Origin: Candidatus Baldrarchaeota archaeon | GTDB lineage: Archaea; Asgardarchaeota; Baldrarchaeia; Baldrarchaeales; DXJG01 | Reading direction: 5' to 3' | Length of the DNA stretch: 32,000 bases | Assembly: GCA_019056805.1 (NCBI GenBank) | Contig: DXJG01000002.1 | Coordinates: 517-32,516 of the forward strand | Shown: positions 1,859-16,519 of the stretch, piece by piece | Position numbering within the stretch: position 1 is the stretch's first letter | How the letters are laid out: the number at the start of each line of letters is the position of its first letter | Translations under genes and position numbers: made by a program | The notes under the pieces: generated by a model | The model's database searches: none | The model's input: the letters and a program-made list of their open reading frames with translations, nothing else | Told to the model about the DNA's origin: nothing

Positions 1859-2020
1859 GCCGGGGTGGCTCAGACTGGTTAGAGCGCCGGACCAAATTTA
1901 ATTATCGGGGCGAAACTCATAGGGTACGAGAACTAGTCCCTTCCTGAGACATCCGGAGGTCCCGGGTTCGAATTTCCCAGAAGTTCAAGTCTGGGTGCGA
2001 AAATCCCGGCCCCGGCACCA
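1859..2020 (+). tRNA. Elongator tRNA-Met(CAU) with three introns: 30/31 (1891-1914), 37/38 (1922-1950), 59/60 (1973-2003)
   Basis: Removing 24+29+31 nt gives a 78-nt cloverleaf GCCGGGG..CCGGA-CT-CAT-AA-TCCGG..CCGGG-TTCGAAT-CCCGG-CCCCGGC-ACCA; each intron has a 4-bp BHB central helix (CGCC:GGCG, CTCA:TGAG, TTCG:CGAA). Confidence 0.93.
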
Positions 2021-2256: not shown

Positions 2257-3486
2257 TTGCAAGAATTCGATTTTCTGACTCTTGATGATGTTGAAGTATC
2301 AGGGAAAAAACTGCTTCTCAGAGTTGACATAAATTCCCCCATAGACCCAGAAACACTCACAATACTGGACGATTCGAGAATAAAAGCCATACTTACCACG
2401 CTTAAAGATTTAGAAGAAGCAGCAGTAGTTCTAATCTCCCACCAAAGCAGACCAGGGAAAAAGGACTTCACCTCTCTTGAACCCCATGCACTCATTTTAA
2501 GGAAATATCTAGGCGACCGAGTAAAGTTCATAGATGACATTTTTGGTCCAGCAGCAAGAAAAGCAATAAGAAAACTTTCACCAGGAGAAATTCTAGTTCT
2601 AGAAAACGTAAGATTCTATTCAGAAGAAAACATTGAAGCACCACCAAAAACCCTAGCAAAAACACACCTTGTCAGAAAACTAGCGCACTTCTTCGATATG
2701 TTTGTGAATGATGCTTTCGCAGCTATACATAGATCCCAACCATCACTCGTAGGATTCGCAGAAGTACTCCCAACCGTTGCGGGGAGACTTATGGAAAAAG
2801 AACTCAAAGCACTAGAAAAGGTACTACAAAACCCAGAAAAACCCTGCGTATTCTTCTTAGGAGGAGCAAAAGTACCAGACAAAATGGAAATAATGCTAAC
2901 CGCTATTCAAAAAAGAAAAGCCGATAAAATACTCTTAGGCGGATTACTCGCAAACGTATTCCTAGAAGCAGCAGGGTACAACATTGGAGAAGAAAACAAA
3001 AAACCACTACCAGACTTTGAAAAACTAAAAATCAAAGCAAAAGAAATACTAGAAAAATACAAAGATGTAATAGAACTACCAAAAGACGTAGCAGTAGAAA
3101 TAAACAACGAAAGAATAGAAGTTCCAGTAGACCAACTACCAATAAAAGGACAAATAAAAGACATAGGAATAAACACAATCATACACTACTCAAAAATATT
3201 ATCAAATGCAGCAACAATAGTAGCAAACGGACCAGCAGGAATATTCGAAGAAAGACAATACGCCATAGGAACAACAGAAATCCTATACTCAATAGCAAAC
3301 TCAAATGCCTACAAAATAATAGGAGGAGGCCACCTAGGAGCCATCGCAAACATACTAAACTTAAACACAAAAATCAACCATATAAGCACAGGCGGAGGAG
3401 CAGCTCTATCACTACTAGCAGGAAAAAAACTACCAGTAATAGAAGCACTAAAAAAGGCAGCCAAAAAACATAAAACACCTCACTAA
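2257..3486 (+). CDS. pgk: Phosphoglycerate kinase
   Basis: LLRVDINSP, SHQSRP, LENVRF, NDAFAAIHR, GGAKV, NGPAGIFE, GGGH and STGGGA motifs; TTG start. Confidence 0.97.
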   Translation: MQEFDFLTLDDVEVSGKKLLLRVDINSPIDPETLTILDDSRIKAILTTLKDLEEAAVVLISHQSRPGKKDFTSLEPHALILRKYLGDRVKFIDDIFGPAARKAIRKLSPGEILVLENVRFYSEENIEAPPKTLAKTHLVRKLAHFFDMFVNDAFAAIHRSQPSLVGFAEVLPTVAGRLMEKELKALEKVLQNPEKPCVFFLGGAKVPDKMEIMLTAIQKRKADKILLGGLLANVFLEAAGYNIGEENKKPLPDFEKLKIKAKEILEKYKDVIELPKDVAVEINNERIEVPVDQLPIKGQIKDIGINTIIHYSKILSNAATIVANGPAGIFEERQYAIGTTEILYSIANSNAYKIIGGGHLGAIANILNLNTKINHISTGGGAALSLLAGKKLPVIEALKKAAKKHKTPH

Positions 3487-3568: not shown

Positions 3569-3693
3569 GCCGCCGTAGCTCAGCCGGTAGAGGAAATAAA
3601 CCCGCCAAAAGCGGCGGACTTGTAACTACTATGAACATATAAAAGTAGCAAGAAATCCGCTGGTCGCGGGTTCAAATCCCGCCGGCGGCTCCA
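3569..3693 (+). tRNA. tRNA-Thr(UGU) with introns at 22/23 (3591-3609) and 37/38 (3625-3654)
   Basis: GCCGCCG acceptor, GCGGA-CT-TGT-A/A-TCCGC anticodon arm, GCGGG-TTCAAAT-CCCGC, TCCA end; 37/38 BHB is perfect; 22/23 BHB is relaxed (one C:A). Confidence 0.93.
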
Positions 3694-3961: not shown

Positions 3962-4099
3962 GGGGCCGTGGTCTAGTGGTATGCGGGTTTAATCCGCTTA
4001 CCGGGGAACTTGGTATGATGCTGGGTTTGGGACCCAGTGGACTAGCAGAGAAAACTCTGCTAGGCTGAATCCCGGGTTCAAATCCCGGCGGCCCCACCA
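3962..4099 (+). tRNA. tRNA-Pro(UGG) with introns at 15/16 (3977-4008) and 46/47 (4041-4069)
   Basis: GGGGCCG/CGGCCCC acceptor, CTGGG-TT-TGG-GA-CCCAG uninterrupted anticodon arm; both inserts fold as hairpins with BHB-like junctions; CCA encoded. Confidence 0.92.
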
Positions 4100-4218
4100 T
4101 ATATCATCGTGAAAATAGCCTATAACACCAGCAATAAATTTATAGCTTGAAAAAATAAAAAATAGATAGATTTAGAGTTTAAACTTCAAAGTCGCAATTC
4201 AAATGTAATTACTAACCT

Positions 4219-4359
4219 GCGGGGGTGGCCGAGACCGCCAAGATACCTTCTTTAATGGCGGTGGGAACCAGGACAAAGGGGCTGGATCCGTTTAAAGGCG
4301 CAGGACTTAAGATCCTGTGGCGCAGGCCTGCGTGGGTTCAAATCCCACCCCCCGCACCA
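4219..4359 (+). tRNA. tRNA-Leu(UAA) with two D-arm introns at 15/16 (4234-4267) and 21/22 (4277-4295)
   Basis: GCGGGGG/CCCCCGC acceptor, CAGGA-CT-TAA-GA-TCCTG, long variable arm GGC-GCAG-GCC; BHB-like helices GCCG:TGGG (G:G mismatch) and GGAC:GTTT. Confidence 0.92.
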
Positions 4360-4951: not shown

Positions 4952-6094
4952 ATGGAGTTTAAATTAACACCTGAACAAGAAATGTTACGAGATACCGCGC
5001 GTGAGTTTGCAGAGAAAGAAGTAGAACCCAGAGTCGAAGAAATAGAAAAGACAAGGAAAATACCGGAAGACCTGATTAAGAGACTATTTGAGCTAGGATT
5101 TGGTGGCATTATAATCCCTGAAGAATATGAAGGTTCTGCTGCCGGCCATTTAGCAAGAGCAATAATTTTAGAGGAAATTGCCTACTCATGCCCCGCACTT
5201 GCATTTACCCTACAGATAGTTCATCTTGGACAAGCCCCCCTGATTTTTCACGGAACGAAAGAACAAAAAGAGAAATGGCTTCCTGATTTGGCAAAAGGAA
5301 AACTAATTGCATCGTGTGCCGTAACCGAGCCAACAGGCGGATCTGATGTCATGGGAATAAAAACATTCGCTAAAAAAGAAAATAATGAATATGTAATTAC
5401 TGGCCGTAAATGCTTCATTACAAATGTCCATCTTGCAAATATTCACGGAGTTTTAGCGAAAAGCGGAGAAGACCCAAGACATATGACATTCTTCATGATA
5501 GAAGGCGATAGACCTGGAGTGAAACCGGGAAGGGAGGAAAACAAGGTAGGTCTCCATGGCTGTAACACGGGAGAACTTATACTTGACAATGTAAGAGTAC
5601 CTGTTGAAAATGTTATAGGGGTAGAAGGAAAAGGACTCAGAGTTGCACTCACCGCCATTACCAACGTGGGACGAATGGGAGTCGCTGCAACTGGAGTAGG
5701 AATAATAAGACGCTGCCTAGATGAAGCAGTAAAATTTGCAAATCAAAGAGTTCTTTACGGTCAACCCATAAGCAGACTCCAAGCTATCCAATGGCTTATC
5801 TCAGACATATACCTACGATATGAAACCGCTCGTCTACTTCTTCACAGAGCGGCATGGATGATAGATCAAGGCATAAGAGCAGATGCAGAAGTTGGAATGG
5901 TAAAATTAACAGCTACAGAAGGAGCAGCTGAATGCGCAAGCAAATTATCCAGCATACTTGGAGCCTACGGAATAATGGAAGAATACGCGGCACAAAGACT
6001 ACTTAGAGACGCATATTCACTAATCCCCGCAGCCGGAACAAACGAAATTATGAGAATTGTAATTTCCAGAAAAGCTTTCGAAAGAGCAACCTAA
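4952..6094 (+). CDS. Acyl-CoA dehydrogenase-fold flavoprotein, atypical active site
   Basis: VTEP.GGSD, GRKCFITN, K.GL.G..TGEL, R.LYGQPI, GAYG and GTNEI motifs; IYEGT is replaced by PAAGT. Confidence 0.9.
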   Translation: MEFKLTPEQEMLRDTAREFAEKEVEPRVEEIEKTRKIPEDLIKRLFELGFGGIIIPEEYEGSAAGHLARAIILEEIAYSCPALAFTLQIVHLGQAPLIFHGTKEQKEKWLPDLAKGKLIASCAVTEPTGGSDVMGIKTFAKKENNEYVITGRKCFITNVHLANIHGVLAKSGEDPRHMTFFMIEGDRPGVKPGREENKVGLHGCNTGELILDNVRVPVENVIGVEGKGLRVALTAITNVGRMGVAATGVGIIRRCLDEAVKFANQRVLYGQPISRLQAIQWLISDIYLRYETARLLLHRAAWMIDQGIRADAEVGMVKLTATEGAAECASKLSSILGAYGIMEEYAAQRLLRDAYSLIPAAGTNEIMRIVISRKAFERAT

Positions 6095-6121
6095 ACACCT
6101 TTCTTTTTTAATGGTGATGTA

Positions 6122-6928
6122 ATGACCGAAGAATTACAAATTATAGTTTGCATAAAGCAGGTTCCAGATCCCCATTATCTCTCCAAAATTACAATAGATC
6201 CAGTTACAAAAACGATAAGAAGAGAAGGAATACCTGCTGTAATGAATCCATTAGACAGAAACGCTTTAGAAGAAGCTTTACGAATAAAGGAACAACTAGG
6301 GGGAAGAGTCGTAGCAATAAGTATGGGGCCTCCTCAAGCGGAAAGAGTTTGCAGAGATGCTCTGGCAATGGGAGTTGATGAAGCAATTCTCTTAAGTGAT
6401 AGGGTACTTGCGGGATCTGATACACTAGCAACCGCTTATGCTCTCTCAATGGCAATAAAGAAGTTAGGAAGCTTTGATATAGTCTTTTGTGGAAATGAAA
6501 CAGTTGATGGAAGTACGGCCCAAGTTCCACCACAACTCGCCGAATTTTTAAAAGTCCCTCATATAACACGAGTAAGAAAAATCCTATCCATTAATAGAAA
6601 TGAACTAATTGTTGAAAGAACAATCGAATATGGTTACATGAAACTAAGAGTCAAATTACCAGCAGTGATAGCAGTAACAAAAGAAATAAATGAACCTAGA
6701 CTACCCACAGTCTCCGCTATTCTAAAATGTTATCGAAAAGAAATCAAAAAATGGACTGTTTCTGACATAGGAGTTAACCCTAGACAGGTGGGTCTCGAAG
6801 GATCACCAACAAGAGTTATCGACGTCTTTTCTCCAGAAGTTAAAAGAAAAAGGAAAATATTCGAAGGAACTACTGACGAAGCTGTCGAATGGATAATTGA
6901 AAAACTACATGAAGCAGGCATAATATGA
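6122..6928 (+). CDS. etfB: Electron transfer flavoprotein beta subunit
   Basis: IIVCIKQVPD, MNPLD.NALEEAL, SMGP, LSDR..AGSDTLATA, NEPRLP, GL.GSPT motifs. Confidence 0.93.
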   Translation: MTEELQIIVCIKQVPDPHYLSKITIDPVTKTIRREGIPAVMNPLDRNALEEALRIKEQLGGRVVAISMGPPQAERVCRDALAMGVDEAILLSDRVLAGSDTLATAYALSMAIKKLGSFDIVFCGNETVDGSTAQVPPQLAEFLKVPHITRVRKILSINRNELIVERTIEYGYMKLRVKLPAVIAVTKEINEPRLPTVSAILKCYRKEIKKWTVSDIGVNPRQVGLEGSPTRVIDVFSPEVKRKRKIFEGTTDEAVEWIIEKLHEAGII

Positions 6929-6938
6929 GGTGAATCAC

Positions 6939-7949
6939 ATGCCTAAAGAATGGAAAGGAATAATGACGTTCACCGAACAAAGATTTGGACAAATAGAAGA
7001 AGTTAGCCTTGAACTACTTGGTGGAGCACGCACACTGGCCGAAAAAACAGGTGGAGACGTTTCTACCTTTCTCATCGGACATAATATTAAGAACCTAGCA
7101 AAAGAATTAATCGCATACGGAGCTGATAAAGTATTTGTAGCAGATCATCCATCTCTTACCTATTATCAAAGCGATGCATGTACCAAAATTTTCACAAATC
7201 TCATACATGAACAAAAACCAGACATCGTTCTCATAGGAGCAACATCCATAGGCATGGATCTAGCTCCCCGAGTCGCAGCAAAACTTCAAACAGGACTCTC
7301 TGCACATGTTGTAAAACTTGAAATAGGACCCGACGGAATCCTCAGACAAATAGTCCCAGGTTTTGGTGGAAATGTGATGGCAGTAGTAACATGTCCAGAA
7401 AAACGACCTCAAATGGCCACAGTACGGCCCGGAATTCTCAAAAAAATTGCAAAAGATGAATCGCGACAAGGTGAAATCATAGAACTTGACGTAAAAATAA
7501 GCGAAGAAGAACTTAAAGCAAAAACCCTAGAAATGAAAATAGAACCACCTCCAGAGTTACCAATTGAAAAAGCAGAAATCGTCATTGCAGGAGGATGGGG
7601 TATCTGTGACAAAGAATGTTTCAATATGTTAAAAGAACTTGCAAAACTATTAGGAGGAGCAGTAGGCGGAACTCGCCCAGTCCTAGATGAAGATCTAATA
7701 AAAGAAGATCAAATGATAGGTCAAAGCGGAAAAATCATAGCACCAAAAGTTTACATAGGATTCGGAATCTCAGGAGAAATGCACCACGTAGTCGGTATAT
7801 TAGACTCCGATACAATAATAGCAATAAATATAGACTCTAAAGCTCCCATCTTCGACTTTGTAGACTACGGAGTAATAGGAGATGCAAAAGAAATTCTACC
7901 ACGACTAATTAAAAAACTTAAAGAAAAATTAGAAAGAAAACAATGTTAA
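6939..7949 (+). CDS. etfA: Electron transfer flavoprotein alpha subunit
   Basis: [55 protein letters not shown] motifs; GAGGTGA SD before ATG 6939. Confidence 0.93.
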
Positions 7950-9613
7950 AATATCATTGGAGCCTTGTATTCCCCAAAAACATCTCTCAAAACATCACAT
8001 ATTTCTCCAATTGTCGCATAAGATTTTACAGCATCTATAGTAACTGGTAATATATTCTCATCGCTCTCAGCAACCTCCCTCATCTTTTGAAGAACTTCCT
8101 TAACTCTACTATTATCCCTACTAGCCCTTAATTCCCTAATACGTTCTATTTGTCTCCTCTCAACCTCAGGATCAACTTTAAGAATCTCATAAGAAAGCTC
8201 CTCATCTATAACATATTTATTAATACCAACAATACACCGTTCCCCGTTCTCCACTTCTTTCTGGGTCTTATACGCAGAATCAGCAATTTCACGCTGAATA
8301 TATCCAGACTTAATTGCAGCAACAGCCCCACCCATCTTCTCAATCTTCTCAATATATCTTAACGCTCTATCCTCAATCTCATTTGTCAACCACTCAACAT
8401 AATATGAACCGCCAAGAGGATCAACCGTATTAGCAACCCCGGATTCCTCAGCAATAATCTGCTGAGTACGTAATGCTATACGAACCGCTTTCTCGGTAGG
8501 CAAACACAATGCTTCATCATAAGAATTAGTATGAAGAGATTGAGCACCACCCAACACCGCAGCCAATGCTTGAATAGCAACTCTCACAATATTTATCTCC
8601 GACTGCTGAGCAGTTAAAGTGGACCCGCAAGTCTGAACATGAAACCTAAGACGCATAGACCTAGGATTCTTCGCATCAAACTTCTCCTTCATTATCCGTG
8701 CCCATAACCTCCTAGCAGCCCTAAACTTTGCTATCTCCTCAAAAAAATCATTATGCACCCCAAAGAAAAACGAAATTCTAGAAGCAAAATCATCAACATC
8801 AAGACCCCTATCTATCGCTGCCTTCACATACTCAATAGCATTAGCAAAAGTAAAAGCAACCTCTTGAACCGCGTTACATCCAGCTTCACGCATATGATAA
8901 CCACTCACACTAATAAAATTCCACCTAGGCATATTTCTACAACTATACTCAATAATATCAACAACCAACCTCATAGAAGGCTCAGGAGGAAAAATATATT
9001 GTCCCCTTGCAATATACTCCTTCAAAATATCATTCTGCACTGTACCACTTAACTCCTTCAAAGAAACCCCCTGCATTTCACCTATCGCAATATACATCGC
9101 CTGAAGAATATGCGCCGTAGCATTAATTGTCATAGAAGTAGACACTTTTTCCAAAGGAATACCATCAAAAAGCCGCTCCATATCCCTAAGCGTAGGCACG
9201 GAAACCCCAACACGCCCAACCTCACCCGCCGCCAAAGGATGATCAGGATCAATCCCCACCTGCGTAGGAAGATCAAACGCCACACTTAAACCGGTCTGCC
9301 CCAACTCAAGAAGATACTTAAACCTCCTATTCGAATCCTCAGCAGTCCCATAACCAGCATATTGCCGCATGGTCCAAAGACGACCCCTATACATCGTATG
9401 ATAAACACCACGAATATACGGATACCTACCAGAAAAACTGAGGTCCCTAAGATAATCAAAATCCTCCAAATCAAGAGGAGTATACAACCGCTTCACAGGA
9501 ATTCCCGAAGAAGTCACAAACTTCTCCTTCCTCTCACCAAACCGAGAAGCCTCATAATTCCACGCCTCTTTTTCCTTCCTCAACAACTCCAAACTTTTCC
9601 TATCAAAACTCAT
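7946..9613 (-). CDS. mcmA: Methylmalonyl-CoA mutase, large (substrate-binding) subunit of a split enzyme
   Basis: WTMRQYAG (Tyr89 equivalent), [10 protein letters not shown] (Gln197/Arg207), SGYHM.EAG (His244), SLHTN; no C-terminal DxHxxG B12-binding domain; ATG 9613 preferred over TTG 9625. Confidence 0.95.
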
Positions 9614-9649
9614 GGCAAACACCAAACCTCATCCATTACCATGAAAATC

Positions 9650-10130
9650 CCATTTTTAAATCCTCATACACATTTATCAAAATATCTCCTACACAAAACT
9701 AGGACAATCAAACAAAAACAACAATACAGACAAAACTATCAGGTGTATCAAAATATTTCACATAACCCAAAACACAAAAATATTAAATAATATCTCACAA
9801 AGCAATAAAAACGATGGAGCCGCCGCCGGGCTTCGAACCCGGGACCTCCTCCTTACCAAGGAGGCGCTTTGGTCGGTTCTTGATGTGTTTTTTCTCTGAC
9901 CAGGCTGAGCTACGGCGGCTTTTTGTTGTTTTGTAGGTTTTTGTTGTTGTTTCTATGTTTTTATGGTTTTTATTTTTGTTGTTGGTTTGGTGGTGGTGTT
10001 TTATATTTGTGTTTGTTTGTTTTTATTTGTTTTTCTATTGTTTGTTGTGTTGTTGTTTTTTGTGGTAAGGTTTTAATGTTGTTATAGTAGGTCTTATAAG
10101 TAAATTGTTGGTATTGTTTAGTTGATGGTG
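9650..10130. other. Extreme strand-skew switch: A/C-rich left flank, G/T-rich right flank of tRNA-Thr(GGU)
   Basis: Hand count: 7 G in 9661-9810; 2 C and 12 A in 9921-10080. Confidence 0.9.
9815..9919 (-). tRNA. tRNA-Thr(GGU) with 27-nt intron at 22/23 (9869-9895)
   Basis: Reverse strand GCCGCCG..GCTC..CCTCC-TT-GGT-AA-GGAGG..CCGGG-TTCGAAG-CCCGG-CGGCGGC-TCCA; perfect GGTC:GACC BHB helix. Confidence 0.95.
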
Positions 10131-10134
10131 AAGT

Positions 10135-10809
10135 ATGATGAGTGTTGTTCTCATCGGGACGGTCATTTTGCAGTTGTTAAATATATTTGATATGGTGTTT
10201 TCGTTTTTTGAAGGGATTAAGGATGTTATTTCGGATTTTCTTGGGATTCCTATTCCTGATGAGGCTTGGATTTCGTTTTGGTTGTTTGTGGCTCTGGTTA
10301 TTTCGACTTATGTTTTATCGCTAGGAAAGGGACCTGTGGAGTCGGGTTTTCCTATCGATGAGGTGGGTGCTGAGTCGGCTGCGGTGTTTAAGGCTGAGGA
10401 GGTTGCTGCTAGGTCGGCGTTAGAGTTTTTGGATGATGCTTTTAATAAGGGTGAGGTTTCTGAGCAGTTGTTTAATAGGTTGAAGTCTTTCTATTCTAGT
10501 AAGTTGGATAGGATTAGTGAGCAGCTGGCTCGTTTAAGTAGATTTGAAGAAATTAGAGGTATTGATCTTGAACTTGAGGAGGCTAAGCGAGAATTTTTGG
10601 AGAGGCTAAAACCACCGTCTGAAGTTGAGAGACCAGCGGTTAGGGAGGAACCGGTTGTCGAGGAAGTTGCGGTTCCTAAGGTTGAGGAGGCTAAGGTTGA
10701 GCCTACTGTTCCTTCTGCTCCGAAAGGGGAGACGCTTGTTCAGGTTTTAAGAGATGAGATGTTGAGGGAGCTTCGTAGGTTAAAGGAAATTATAGAGAAG
10801 TCCAGTTAA
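10135..10809 (+). CDS. Hypothetical membrane-anchored coiled-coil protein
   Basis: Hydrophobic N-terminus, helical hairpin LEFLDDAFNKGEVSEQLFNRLK, Pro/Glu/Val-rich linker, C-terminal amphipathic helix; GGTGA SD; apparently operonic with rpiA. Confidence 0.75.
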   Translation: MMSVVLIGTVILQLLNIFDMVFSFFEGIKDVISDFLGIPIPDEAWISFWLFVALVISTYVLSLGKGPVESGFPIDEVGAESAAVFKAEEVAARSALEFLDDAFNKGEVSEQLFNRLKSFYSSKLDRISEQLARLSRFEEIRGIDLELEEAKREFLERLKPPSEVERPAVREEPVVEEVAVPKVEEAKVEPTVPSAPKGETLVQVLRDEMLRELRRLKEIIEKSS

Positions 10810-10822
10810 GGACGGTGTATTT

Positions 10823-11527
10823 ATGGCTGGTTTTGACGAGAGGGAGAGTGCTAAAGTTAATGCTGCTGAGGCTGCTGTTAAGTTGGTGAAGGATGGACAA
10901 GTTCTTGGTATTGGGAGTGGATCTACTGTTGAGCATTTTATTAGGTTGTTAGGGGAACGTATTAGGAAGGAAGAGTTAGAGGTTTATGGTGTTCCTTCTT
11001 CTTTTCAATCGTATTTTCTTGCGTTAGATAGTGGTATTCGTATTGTTGGTTTAGATGAGTTTGATGTGCTTGATTTAGCTGTTGATGGTGCTGATGAGGT
11101 CGATTCCGACCTAAATTTGATTAAGGGTGGTGGTGGAGCTTTTACTAGAGAGAAAATTGTTGATTCTGCAGCGAAGGAATTTGTGGTAATTGTTGATTGG
11201 TCTAAAAAGGTTAATCGACTTGGTGAGAAGTTTCCTGTTCCTGTAGAGGTTCTGCCTTTTGCATATGGTTATGTTTGCCGTAGGTTGAGGAAGCTTGGTG
11301 GGGAGCCAATTCTTAGAAAAGCTAAGCTTAAATTGGGCCCAGTTATCTCTGATAATGGTAATTTCATTGTTGATGTGAAATTTTCGAGAATTAAAGATGT
11401 TAAGAACTTGGAAAGAGATATAAATAATATTCCGGGTGTTGTCGATAACGGCATTTTTCCATCGAGTTTAGTGGATATCGTTTTTGTTGGGTATAGCGAT
11501 AGAGTTGAGATATTGAAGCGTGAATGA
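10823..11527 (+). CDS. rpiA: Ribose-5-phosphate isomerase A
   Basis: GIGSGST, DGADEVD, IKGGGGA.TREK, PVEV.P, SDNGN, IPGVVDNG motifs. Confidence 0.97.
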   Translation: MAGFDERESAKVNAAEAAVKLVKDGQVLGIGSGSTVEHFIRLLGERIRKEELEVYGVPSSFQSYFLALDSGIRIVGLDEFDVLDLAVDGADEVDSDLNLIKGGGGAFTREKIVDSAAKEFVVIVDWSKKVNRLGEKFPVPVEVLPFAYGYVCRRLRKLGGEPILRKAKLKLGPVISDNGNFIVDVKFSRIKDVKNLERDINNIPGVVDNGIFPSSLVDIVFVGYSDRVEILKRE

Positions 11528-11528
11528 T

Positions 11529-13130
11529 TTAGTCTGCATAAATTTTTTTCCCTTGTTTTAATACCTCTTCAAGTATTTTTCCATAGTTGCTATTTTTTCT
11601 GATTCTTACTTCTCCTCGTTTTCCGACCTTAACCGCAAATAATAAGTCTTGGTCAGCATAAAAATTAACTAATTTTCTTGCTAGTGGTGGTGGAACAAGA
11701 AGGATATAGTATTTACGCGTAATGTCTATTTCCACAGGTAATTTTTCTCTTTTAGTAACTTCTCTTCTAACTTTTCCTTTTTTTACTTCCTTTATGGGGG
11801 AAACAACTACTTGTTCTCCGAAGACGTATATTTCGTATTCCAGTCCTCCTTTTTCAAAATCTCTGACTTCAATAACTGGTCGGGCTAAATCTCTTTCAGT
11901 CATTCCGGATGGAACTTTTACCGTGAGGTTTAGAGAGTATACTTTTTCTATTCTTCCGCCTTTAATGAAAATTACGGTGTCTATAACTCTACTGATTAGG
12001 CCTAAGTCTACTCTTCCAATGAATCGTTGTATGGCATCTATTGCTTGTGTTGCATGAACAACACCTATCATTCCTACACCAGCGAATCTTAAGTCTGCGA
12101 AGATTTTGAAATCTCTGGTTTTTCGAAGTTCATCAAAAATACAGTAGTCGGGTCTTACGAGTAATAGCACATCGGCTGTCTTCTCTAAACTACCTTTTAG
12201 AGCGGTATATTGAGTTATATCCGGGCCTACCTGTAAGTCTCTGGGTTTTTCGATTGTTTTCACAATTTTGTTCATGCTGCTATAAAATTCGGCTAGTGCT
12301 GATGCGAAGGTACTTTTACCCGCGCCGGGTGGACCTGCGATTAATATGCCTTCTGCTCTTTCTTTTAGTCGTTTAAGGAGTCTATCTGATACGTTGTAAT
12401 CGTTTATTGTCATTTTGACAAGGGGTCTTACGGCTGTTATTTCCATTCCATCTGAGAAGGGAGGTCTTGCGATCGCAATTCTGTATTCTCCCATTTGTAC
12501 AACGGTTGCTCCAGGTTCGTCGATTTCTATAAAAGCGTCTTTTTCACTTCTTGTTCTTTCTATTATGTCCATAGCGATGCTTTGCAATTCTTCGAGGCTT
12601 ACGGGGTCTTCTCTGATTTTTACTAACTCCCAGTGACCAGGGGTGCCTCTTTTTGCAAGGGGAGGAACTCCTTCTTTCAGATGCACTGACATGACATTTT
12701 CCGAGAAGAAATCTTCGATTTTAATCCTTTTTCTTTTGATTTTTATATATTCTGTTTCTATTCCTTCAATTTTGGCTAGAGAAGCTTGAATATGATCACT
12801 AGTAATTAGCTTGGCATTTAGCTCTTTTGCTTGTCTTCTTATTAGAGCATCTATTTCTCCCTTCGATGCGTATTTTATTTGTCCTGGATCTGGTCTTTCT
12901 CCGACAAATTCTAGTTCTATTTTGTTTTCTTCTGCTAGTTTTCTGAGTTTTTTCAACTCTTCTAGCCCTGCGTATCCAACAGCTTTCCCTATGTTTGCTT
13001 GGTATTCTATTTCTGCAATAACAGCGTTGGGTATGGCTATTTTTACATTACTTAGTTTATTTTCCCTTATTTTACGGGATAACCATCCTTCTATGATGAT
13101 TGACGTGTCGGGTACTATGATTTTTGTCAT
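11529..13130 (-). CDS. PIN-domain ATPase (PINA/VirB11-like family)
   Basis: N-terminal PIN (VPDTS..I..V.AE.E), Walker [26 protein letters not shown] motifs. Confidence 0.9.
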
Positions 13131-13235
13131 ACATTTTTCACCATTGTTTAAAGTAGAATCAAGAAGGTGAGTTACGACTTAAATATATTTTTTTCTAAAT
13201 GATAAAGAAGATTTCTTAACAGTAAAATCAAAATC

Positions 13236-13772
13236 TTAGAGCTCTAAACGTGAAACTTTATAATACGTTATATCTCCCTGTCTGTCTACAATTGCCAATA
13301 TTAATTCTTTTCCCATACTTCGTGCTGCTTTAGTTATTTTATCAAGTTCGGTTAAACTAAATGGTTTTCCTTCTTCTACTATTCCAACTAGATATTTAGC
13401 TACATCTTTTCCTACTTTTGCCCCTCTTTCGTACAGGCGATATTCAGCGACTTCTCCTGGACCCTGCCTAACTATGTAACCTCGGGATCTTAGGTCTCTG
13501 TAGACGATATATTTTATCCAAATTTCTTTATCTACTTTTTCAAGATATTTCATCAAATCGTTGAAACTGTATTCATTTCCGCCGTTGTCAATAACTTTTA
13601 TCTTGTTTCTCTCTAGAAGTATTAACGCTTCAACAGGGTTAAGTATCAGCTTTTCATCTGAAACTAATTCTCCATAATATCCTTGATTATAAAGCTTTGC
13701 AACATCTTTTCCTTCTATTATCACCGAGGTATCTATGAGTTTTCCGCAAGCTACGATTTCTTCCTCTTCCAT
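13236..13772 (-). CDS. endA: tRNA splicing endonuclease subunit, probably non-catalytic (beta)
   Basis: L.PVEAL.L, VYRDLRSRGY, RLYERG, LAIVD..GDITYY; Tyr114 and Lys155 present but Val124 occupies the catalytic His position and the KYG motif is lost. Confidence 0.88.
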   Translation of the reverse strand: MEEEEIVACGKLIDTSVIIEGKDVAKLYNQGYYGELVSDEKLILNPVEALILLERNKIKVIDNGGNEYSFNDLMKYLEKVDKEIWIKYIVYRDLRSRGYIVRQGPGEVAEYRLYERGAKVGKDVAKYLVGIVEEGKPFSLTELDKITKAARSMGKELILAIVDRQGDITYYKVSRLEL

Positions 13773-16422: not shown

Positions 16423-16519
16423 GCCCCGGTGGTGTAGCCCGGCCTAGCATGCGGGTCTGTCACAGGGCTACAACCCGTCAAAACCCGCGACCCGGGTTCA
16501 AATCCCGGCCGGGGCGCCA
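16423..16519 (+). tRNA. tRNA-Asp(GUC) with 19-nt intron at 38/39 (16464-16482)
   Basis: GCCCCGG/CCGGGGC acceptor, CGGGT-CT-GTC-AC/ACCCG; the BHB register fits only 38/39 (TGTC:GTCA with one T:T, plus GGG:CCC intron helix). Confidence 0.93.

Follow-up and report, generated by a model that had tools for sequence, protein, structure and literature searches.

The window, the whole stretch of 32,000 nucleotides analysed here, comes from a metagenome-assembled draft genome (18 contigs, 91% complete) of a heat-loving archaeon of Asgard type, a relative of the ancestor of eukaryotes. Centred on an intron-bearing tRNA-Thr(GGU) gene, the region comprises the following features, which were assigned by Pfam or Rfam.

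2257-3486, + strand: pgk (Pfam PF00162)
3569-3690, + strand: second anchor, an intron-bearing tRNA, first in a cluster running to about 4359 (jump +0.35)
4952-7949, + strand: acyl-CoA dehydrogenase, ETF-beta and ETF-alpha (Pfam), in the left gradient
7946-9625, - strand: methylmalonyl-CoA mutase large subunit, mcmA (Pfam PF01642, 774 bits)
9626-9817: left intergenic flank (+ strand A 93, C 44, T 44, G 11)
9818-9919, - strand: tRNA-Thr anchor, intron-bearing (Rfam RF00005)
9920-10134: right intergenic flank (+ strand T 132, G 54, A 26, C 3)
10135-11527, + strand: ORF 10135 (no Pfam family) and ribose-5-phosphate isomerase A, rpiA (Pfam)
11529-13772, - strand: PIN-domain ATPase (PINA) and tRNA-splicing endonuclease EndA (Pfam), in the right tail of the gradient
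16423-16516, + strand: third anchor, an intron-bearing tRNA (jump +0.14)

The tRNA-Thr gene scores 50.9 bits against RF00005 (gathering score 29 bits), its anticodon GGT (Thr) being read from the loop TTGGTAA, and has its D-arm region interrupted by an A/C-rich intron of 26 nt; ARAGORN run without intron mode failed to detect it. An MCM helicase was ruled out for mcmA by its match to PF01642. First-position AT skew in the flanking genes is 0.06-0.20, compared with a genome mean of 0.30.

Across the tRNA-Thr gene, the + strand turns from A/C-rich on the left to G/T-rich on the right. Keto skew (G+T-A-C) at all sites is -0.32 over the kilobase left of the gene and +0.39 over the kilobase right of it, a jump of 0.72 which is the highest among 37,739 positions genome-wide (sd 0.089). 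The abrupt flip reported in the original prediction is confirmed, and no other locus in the genome shows a stronger one; the base counts given with it (7 G in 9661-9810; 2 C and 12 A in 9921-10080) are also correct. The left flank is A/C-rich on the + strand, so that the leftward, outward-running strand is G/T-rich, while the right flank is almost entirely G/T on the + strand and has at least eight T5+ runs on its outward strand. As predicted, the skew fades over a few kilobases, reaching about zero within roughly 4-5 kb on each side.

The skew is carried by 4-fold degenerate sites, irrespective of gene direction. To the left, the + strand genes for acyl-CoA dehydrogenase, ETF-beta and ETF-alpha have third-position keto skews on the + strand (k3p) of -0.32, -0.29 and -0.46, the effect rising toward the tRNA-Thr anchor (4-fold keto of etfA on the + strand, -0.49); they are A/C-rich in sense, so their template strand is keto-rich. 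The oppositely oriented mcmA is G/T-rich at third positions in sense (k3 +0.66) and hence A/C-rich on the + strand (4-fold sites A.60, C.26, G.05, T.09). To the right, k3p is +0.66 for ORF 10135 (4-fold sites on the + strand A.08, C.04, G.30, T.58) and +0.54 for rpiA (4-fold keto +0.66), both on the + strand, and +0.43 and +0.24 for PINA and EndA, which are on the - strand and A/C-rich in sense. Fifteen of the first 20 codons of ORF 10135 do end in G or T, as had been stated; the bias claimed for mcmA stands as well, with 16 of the first 20 codons counted from the TTG start instead of 17. PINA, judged A/C-ended by eye, is so in sense because its 4-fold keto skew on the + strand is +0.35. Within the single pgk ORF, k3p starts at -0.23 near the 5' end and falls to -0.96 beside the tRNA cluster, where up to 98% of sense third positions are A/C (4-fold keto on the + strand, -0.63). 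Thus, in pgk, etfA and PINA the skew lies on the "wrong" strand relative to the gene's own transcription. Neighbouring genes on opposite strands are anticorrelated in sense k3 (r=-0.59) and correlated in + strand k3 (r=+0.46), and the 4-fold T/C ratio on the keto-rich strand is alike whether that strand is sense or antisense (13.8 versus 13.0), with GC4 unchanged. These results support the claim that the bias is set by strand and side and not by sense, with a polarity like that of a bidirectional leading strand.

The switches noticed near 3.6 and 16.5 kb are likewise confirmed, each falling on a tRNA gene; around the latter, k3p is about 0 to the left and +0.42 and +0.14 to the right. The spacing of 6-7 kb holds as the interval between tRNA loci in the window and not as a genome-wide period. 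Genome-wide, an up-jump is seen at 22 of the 22 tRNAs defined a priori with Rfam, and at 26 of 26 after four later additions. Their mean jump is +0.29, against about 0.01 (sd 0.10) at 858 other intergenic gaps (MWU p=4e-12), which bears out the proposed tie to tRNA genes; the suggestion that only a subset of tRNA loci is concerned fails, the signature being present at every tRNA tested. The jump is +0.28 with convergent and +0.28 with divergent flanking genes and equal for both tRNA orientations; its left and right sides are individually significant, the upstream side tending to be stronger (not significant, p about 0.06-0.16). tRNAs make up 10 of the 20 largest up-jumps. Up-jumps are sharp (maximum 0.72) and down-changes gradual (maximum -0.38). 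A literature search found no description of a mirror skew anchored at tRNA genes.

At the tRNA-Thr locus, synteny and skew polarity are kept in six same-genus genomes or contigs, so that the repetition in sister genomes called for at the outset gives the same result, and in five other Asgard genomes 63 of 69 tRNAs have a positive jump. Differences from relatives are mostly transitions, which on the outward-running strand are C>T and A>G: on the left side, T<->C differences stand at 88:30 and G<->A at 68:13, and C:T at 60:10 against a 90%-identical contig. The spectrum is of the type of single-stranded DNA deamination, as in mtDNA, with C>T and A>G excess on one strand, few transversions and unchanged GC. 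The proposed deamination process is supported as to transition type and strand, but A>G is too frequent for plain spontaneous deamination: extra C>T to extra A>G is estimated at about 2:1. For adenine, the rate of deamination is about 2-3% of that for cytosine. The A>G share lies far above this, which makes wobble misincorporation an equal candidate.

Anchors other than tRNAs were also found. The ORB-like 21-mer TTCTTGTTACAATGGAAACAA clusters only at 55.9-59.4 kb of contig C6, the sole ORB-repeat/orc1 origin candidate in the genome; its repeats at 59.1-59.4 kb, 2 kb from orc1, are among the top 20 up-jumps, and k3p passes from -0.44 to +0.41 and +0.49, a mirror signature like that of the tRNAs. 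Mirror skew also lies beside the RNase P RNA gene and, weakly, at the SRP RNA gene. The mcm inteins are bracketed by it (-0.92 and +0.78), the flip occurring inside the single mcm ORF; two of the five intein-bearing genes have no such skew. A 14-kb glycosyltransferase cluster on contig C8 has a neutral core flanked by skews of -0.7 and of +0.4 to +0.8, and an island at 551-558 kb of contig C9 has flanks of -0.89 and +0.65. The C8 island region has no match in same-genus genomes. A model specific to tRNAs would not lead one to expect mirror skew at inteins or a gene island.

One way to account for these data would be that tRNA genes are efficient Orc1/Cdc6-type bidirectional origins every few kilobases, as in eukaryotes, with forks from neighbours diluting the skew with distance. 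The polarity fits, sharp up-jumps with gradual declines recall human skew N-domains (PMC2764438, PMC3320577), and the ORB/orc1 candidate has the same short-range signature. We nonetheless consider dense origins quite improbable. Origins of this archaeal type have an initiator gene close by and several ORB or mini-ORB copies, mostly in inverted orientation about an AT-rich unwinding element. In the window, the canonical ORB core (up to 3 mismatches) has 9 matches where 9.3 are expected, repeats in 9400-10400 are low-complexity only, and tRNA flanks lack the ORB-like element of the C6 candidate. That neither ORB nor orc1/cdc6 is present, as originally observed, is true of the window but not of the genome, where two orc1/cdc6 genes (PF09079) lie at C6:61416-62684 and at C9:45031-46218, the latter 12.5 kb past the window's end. 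A strand effect of one sign (S -0.04 to -0.20) runs through the whole of C9 (612 kb) and the initial 300 kb of C17; such a background, one-signed over at least 600 kb, argues against routine fork starts every 6-7 kb, and the local amplitude of 0.7-0.9 is several times larger. Replication-type asymmetry would persist across the replichore, and the skew here is at about zero by 4-5 kb. The tRNA-Thr signature is not ordinary origin firing, and the dense origins of the original prediction are unsupported.

Transcription-associated mutation, in which strong stable-RNA promoters firing divergently and with read-through would expose the non-template strand to C>T and A>G, agrees with the polarity, with the tendency of the upstream side and with the fact that most anchors are stable-RNA genes; a keto excess on the non-template strand was reportedly seen in other organisms by Green et al. 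in 2003. It is nevertheless unlikely. The keto-rich strand is the template in 45 of the 67 genes with absolute k3 above 0.5, pgk becomes A/C-saturated in sense and mcm flips within one ORF, convergent and divergent neighbours give equal jumps, and the sense strand of the RNA polymerase/ribosomal-protein operon at 17-27 kb has no G/T enrichment. T5+ runs are archaeal terminators, and the outward strand of the right flank has at least eight of them. Of the genes rightward of the C8 island, those on the minus strand have an A/C-rich sense strand. tRNA introns, too, are A/C-rich in sense, unlike what R-loop exposure of the non-template strand should give. If linear DNA were repeatedly imported, or used in gene conversion, around the anchor, the same polarity would arise through 3' tails of incoming fragments or resynthesis at two-ended breaks, with positions adjoining a selected or mobile core co-transferred most often, and the strongest skews do flank sharp-edged neutral cores (the C8 cluster, unmatched in the genus, the C9 island and the mcm inteins). 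We strongly doubt it all the same: the majority of tRNA anchors have no insert, saturation of 4-fold sites is unlikely from rare events, and resection tails at breaks in the resident chromosome would probably give the opposite polarity if deamination is the cause. Moreover, no tyrosine integrase (PF00589) was found in the 91%-complete genome, the flanking genes are housekeeping genes and synteny is conserved in the six relatives; on these same grounds a mobile element or island at tRNA-Thr was rejected. Selection on RNA or DNA structure, through unstructured A/C leaders or a processing stem formed by the tRNA flanks as in archaeal pre-rRNA, could draw on the complementary composition of the A/C-rich and G/U-rich flanks. 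It is largely refuted and highly improbable, flank-flank duplex energy being no better than shuffled (z about 0 in 17 of 18 tests) and the effect extending kilobases into synonymous sites of unrelated genes. Finally, a metagenome-assembled draft invites suspicion of an assembly, amplification or DNA-damage artefact. This explanation is already refuted, with a likelihood close to nil, because contigs from the runs of three other, independent studies are letter-identical over 8113-9882, 9856-10099 and 10081-10364; ORFs are intact, Pfam matches full-length and the bias concentrated at synonymous sites, and six relatives share the pattern.

We favour, with a probability of about 0.45 and from sequence comparison, recurrent outward DNA synthesis from the anchor, which would enrich the outward strand in C>T and A>G changes. 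On this view a transition pressure, tied to the locus, unequal between strands and of long standing, acts at tRNA genes, at the gene for RNase P RNA, at the ORB/orc1 origin candidate and at some insert borders, such that the strand running 5' to 3' away from the anchor has gained T (from C) and G (from A) at every unconstrained site. The effect peaks at the anchor and dies away over about 1-5 kb, now and then reaching beyond 10 kb, whichever strand is coding. Synthesis would start repeatedly at the anchor and proceed outward on both sides, by ORC-independent initiation, fork restart or break-repair synthesis, stable-RNA genes being heavily used and fragile; the outward strand would be either single-stranded and deaminated or synthesised at low fidelity through G.T wobble errors. 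The sequences themselves establish the pattern with its polarity and transition spectrum, its link to tRNAs, its indifference to gene direction and its conservation within the genus; we infer both the process, DNA synthesis rather than transcription or DNA import, and the chemistry that fixes the changes. In migrating-bubble synthesis, nascent single-stranded DNA is a strand-specific mutagenic target (PMC9262586). Against the favoured explanation, near-saturated skew requires a frequent or highly mutagenic event, and the mirror skew at the mcm inteins and the 14-kb island counts against a stable-RNA-gene model and calls for the extra assumption that inserts either target fragile sites of this kind or give rise to them. 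The lack of the ORB-like element at tRNA flanks, the two intein-bearing genes devoid of skew and the A/C-rich tRNA introns also speak against it. A more specific version, which we regard as rather doubtful, is that in Asgard archaea ORC-independent replication or restart, primed by recombination or R-loops, begins preferentially at tRNA and other stable-RNA genes; the mirror skew, on its scale of kilobases, would then chart these start sites over evolutionary time.

Replication usually leaves a faint skew spread over the whole replichore; here, the skew is near-saturated, kilobase-scale and present at every tRNA tested, and looks like a fossil record of repeated starts of DNA synthesis at tRNA genes that could reveal where such archaea begin or restart the copying of their DNA. 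If so, it would allow initiation or fragile sites of uncultured archaea to be mapped from sequence alone and bear on where origin-independent replication begins, a question raised by Thermococcales and Haloferax, for which a map of start sites has so far been unobtainable experimentally. Whatever the cause, codon usage is reshaped, and first-position composition is shifted and with it possibly amino-acid content; the skew can mislead codon-usage methods, detection of horizontal transfer, metagenome binning and skew-based origin prediction.

Among known systems, transcription-associated asymmetry and GC-skewed R-loop promoters, reportedly described by Green (2003), Touchon (2003) and Ginno (2012), likewise have a keto or G excess pointing away from the promoter, with a flip at divergent promoters. 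The present skew differs in being indifferent to the orientation of the genes within its reach and in being missing from the window's RNA polymerase/ribosomal-protein operon. Skew at origins (oriC; human N-domains, PMC2764438, PMC3320577; review, PMC3269012) is alike in its outward G/T-rich, leading-type strand, in a sign set by strand and not by gene, in its sharp up-jumps and gradual declines, and in that this genome's ORB/orc1 candidate has the same jump. It differs in that the anchors here are tRNA genes without ORB repeats or orc1, that the reach is 1-5 kb and not a replichore, and that the amplitude, with as much as about 90% G/T at 4-fold sites, exceeds the replichore-scale skew of this genome several-fold. 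In vertebrate mitochondria, which replicate by strand displacement, bias increases with time spent single-stranded (PMC3269012). Their heavy/light asymmetry resembles the present one in that one strand gains T (C>T) and G (A>G), with near saturation at 4-fold sites, a positional gradient and an unexpectedly large A>G share; here, by contrast, mirror-image pairs of short gradients lie at many chromosomal anchors. We know of no strand-displacement replication in the present archaeon. Strand-coordinated mutation clusters of yeast break-induced, migrating-bubble and double-strand-break repair (PMC9262586, PMC6786661) also have a polarity set by the start point, kilobase tracts and a nascent or unpaired strand as target, but these are single events in experiments or tumours, whereas the present pattern represents an equilibrium reached in evolution at fixed loci and implicates no deaminase. 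In Thermococcales, initiation can be origin-independent and RadA-dependent, with start sites unmapped and no skew signature or tRNA link mentioned (PMC11005403). By analogy with RadA-dependent initiation there and in Haloferax (PMC11409957), a start free of ORC and oriC would fit the ORB-less anchors described here.

Across tRNA-Thr(GGU), the keto skew (G+T-A-C) of the plus strand at all sites changes from -0.32 to +0.39, the largest jump in the genome (37,739 positions scanned; sd 0.089). The draft genome, G000, comprises 1.92 Mb in 18 contigs with 35.5% GC, the window being positions 517-32516 of its contig C9. The features in the window are:

35-143, tRNA (Rfam)
2257-3486, plus strand, pgk (Pfam)
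3569-3690, tRNA (Rfam)
4952-7949, plus strand, acyl-CoA dehydrogenase and ETF-beta/alpha (Pfam)
7946-9625, minus strand, methylmalonyl-CoA mutase, here mcmA (Pfam)
9818-9919, minus strand, tRNA-Thr(GGU), whose D-arm region contains an intron (Rfam; anticodon read from the sequence)
10135-10809, plus strand, ORF 10135, without a Pfam family
10823-11527, plus strand, rpiA (Pfam)
11529-13130, minus strand, PIN-domain ATPase, PINA (Pfam)
13236-13772, minus strand, tRNA-splicing endonuclease, EndA, within the right-hand skew gradient (Pfam)
16423-16516, tRNA, added by the whole-genome search

The base counts that the original prediction gave beside the tRNA were exact on recount; its codon counts were right to within one codon, and the gene it called mcmA is, by Pfam, a methylmalonyl-CoA mutase and no MCM helicase. 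The bias is carried by 4-fold degenerate sites, with plus-strand frequencies of A.60, C.26, G.05 and T.09 in mcmA, and A.08, C.04, G.30 and T.58 in ORF 10135. It had been proposed that strand and side, not sense, set the bias, and this is borne out, genes of both orientations having the same plus-strand sign on a given side. On the left, the plus strand is A/C-rich in all of etfA (plus, -0.49), pgk (plus, -0.63) and mcmA (minus, -0.72); on the right it is G/T-rich both in plus-strand genes (+0.76, +0.66) and in the minus-strand genes PINA (+0.35) and EndA (+0.19). Within pgk, third-position skew goes from -0.23 to -0.96 on approach to the tRNA cluster, and the skew around tRNA-Thr fades out over about 4-5 kb. 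This flip is no artefact. Contigs of three independent studies are letter-identical over both tRNA-Thr flanks, the window ORFs are intact and their Pfam family matches are full-length. The gene order etfB-etfA-mcmA, gap, ORF-rpiA-PINA, in which the gap between mcmA and the ORF is where tRNA-Thr lies in G000, is kept in two same-genus genomes and four metagenome contigs, and all six have the same skew polarity at the locus, but weaker (left -0.22 to -0.39, right +0.25 to +0.57).

The original prediction also proposed testing whether jumps coincide with tRNA genes genome-wide. Taking the jump as 1 kb right minus 1 kb left, it is positive at all 22 testable tRNAs identified a priori by Rfam, and at 26/26 once four later-recognised ones are included, with a mean of +0.29 as compared with about 0.01 (sd 0.10) for 858 other intergenic gaps (MWU p=4e-12). 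The jump is present in either tRNA orientation, and each of its two sides is significant individually; the tRNA upstream versus downstream side (p = 0.06-0.16) and tRNA orientation relative to global skew (p = 0.08) gave non-significant trends only. In a genome scan, tRNAs account for 10 of the top 20 up-jumps (A/C-rich left to G/T-rich right), and up-jumps are sharp (maximum 0.72) while down-changes are gradual (maximum -0.38). Sense skew of adjacent opposite-strand genes is anticorrelated (r=-0.59). Among five other Asgard genomes, considered for tRNAs only and with no non-tRNA control, tRNA jumps are mostly positive: 16/16 in G001 (mean 0.23), 9/9 in G039 (0.18), 18/20 in G005 (0.09), 10/13 in G004 (0.08) and 10/11 in G015 (0.06). 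Further multi-intron tRNAs were placed at window positions 1859-2020 and 3962-4359 by ARAGORN with introns; the Rfam gathering score misses them. As only 27 tRNAs were detected across the whole genome, many intron-rich tRNAs of G000 probably go unrecognised.

Anchors, the sites at which skew flips, are not confined to tRNAs. To the right of the RNase P RNA gene (C1:210-601) lies a gene with a skew of +0.56, fading with distance; the jump at SRP RNA is merely weak, and 16S rRNA is absent from the assembly. A permissive Rfam scan for hidden ncRNAs at 20 non-tRNA jump sites returned one tRNA-like match only (C9:66872-67003). One non-tRNA up-jump (+0.30) falls in the gap C17:100821-101135, where a GC-rich patch with the sequence GTGATGA is a possible C/D-box sRNA; an inverted repeat, CTTGTTA...TAACAAG, is present there too, a similar one occurring at C9:311631-311651. 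Restriction-type anchors were rejected, as jumps are absent from all 4- and 6-bp palindromes located away from tRNAs (|mean| at most 0.042 throughout; for GGGCCC, n=52, mean 0.001) and G000 shows no GGCC-anchored pattern. A processing stem or complementary flanks were rejected too, being no different in duplex energy from shuffled controls.

Elsewhere, mirror-image skew of this polarity flanks unskewed DNA whose edges are very sharp. The mcm ORF (C9:56837-62083, 1749 aa) runs, within one reading frame, from -0.92 through a neutral pair of inteins of about 3.3 kb to +0.78, extein third positions beside the inteins being 92% A/C on the left and about 89% G/T on the right. Other inteins are likewise neutral inserts in skewed exteins, occasionally with a short mirror blip where they begin or end; of the five genes with inteins, two have no such pattern. 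There are two larger neutral cores: a 14-kb glycosyltransferase cluster (C8:6266-20077; -0.7, neutral, +0.4 to +0.8), for which no match was found in the fragmented assemblies of same-genus relatives, and a 7-kb island (C9:551000-558400; -0.89, neutral, +0.65) encoding DUF2139, an MNT-HEPN (toxin-antitoxin-type) gene pair and a Yip1-domain gene. The palindrome CCTTATAAGG marks the left edge of this island, and the next 70 nt or so are G/T-rich. No tyrosine integrase was found in G000.

Pooled over the most skewed genes, 4-fold sites on the keto-rich strand have T.69, G.22, A.06 and C.03, identically whether that strand is sense or antisense, versus A.36, C.12, G.12 and T.40 in neutral genes; GC4 is the same in both. 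Under a simple equilibrium model, extra C>T and extra A>G stand at about 2:1, an excess of A>G over plain spontaneous deamination chemistry, so that G.T wobble misincorporation into a newly made strand is as good a candidate. Substitutions relative to related genomes are mostly transitions and directional; gain of skew in G000 is indistinguishable from loss in a 90%-identical relative, as saturation and compositional convergence of third positions make outgroup polarising unreliable.

The polarity is that of the strand running 5'->3' outward from the anchor. Strands that would fit are the leading-strand sequence where forks move outward, the displaced or nascent strand where D-loop or restart synthesis does so, the one resynthesised following a two-ended break, and the non-template strand in outward transcription. 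Were deamination the cause, the polarity expected from 3' resection tails of a resident-chromosome break would be the opposite one. Outward transcription, although it would yield the right strand, is argued against by several observations: the keto-rich strand is the template in 45/67 strongly skewed genes, skew flips inside single ORFs, and jumps are equal for convergent and divergent flanking genes (+0.28 each). Moreover, the RNA polymerase/ribosomal-protein operon at 17-27 kb is unskewed, the right flank's outward strand carries at least 8 runs of five or more T, and tRNA introns are A/C-rich in sense.

A further reading is that tRNA anchors are ordinary, densely spaced origins. Inverted copies of an ORB-like 21-mer, TTCTTGTTACAATGGAAACAA, form a sole cluster at C6:59099-59421, which an orc1/cdc6 gene (C6:61416-62684) follows 2 kb downstream; a further copy is at C6:55900-55920. 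The cluster is the best candidate chromosomal replication origin. It coincides with the 11th-largest up-jump (third-position skew -0.44 to +0.41, +0.49), which fades out over about 5 kb; thus, the one recognisable origin candidate shares the short-range signature. Against such origins, ORB and orc1 are missing at the tRNA-Thr locus: the 21-mer is absent from tRNA anchors, and the ORB motif is not above chance in the window. Nor is it above chance at the second orc1. A weaker, one-signed strand effect at third positions (S = -0.04 to -0.20) also extends over the full 612 kb of C9 and the initial 300 kb of C17, that of C6 changing sign near 80-90 kb; local peaks are several times stronger than this background, and ordinary forks every few kb are therefore hard to reconcile with it. 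Together, these points favour recurrent DNA synthesis from the anchor outward, by initiation without ORC, by restart or by break repair, at stable-RNA genes that are heavily used, a tentative reading to which we assign a probability of roughly 0.45 and which would explain the neutral inserts only partly.

In Thermococcales, RadA-dependent, origin-independent initiation is established, its start sites being unmapped in that paper (PMC11005403), and strand-specific mutation is known to target the nascent ssDNA of migrating-bubble synthesis (PMC9262586). We found no description of tRNA-anchored local skew in the literature searched. The nearest known patterns are origin-linked skew jumps, the human N-domain sawtooth among them, and the heavy/light strand asymmetry of mitochondria.
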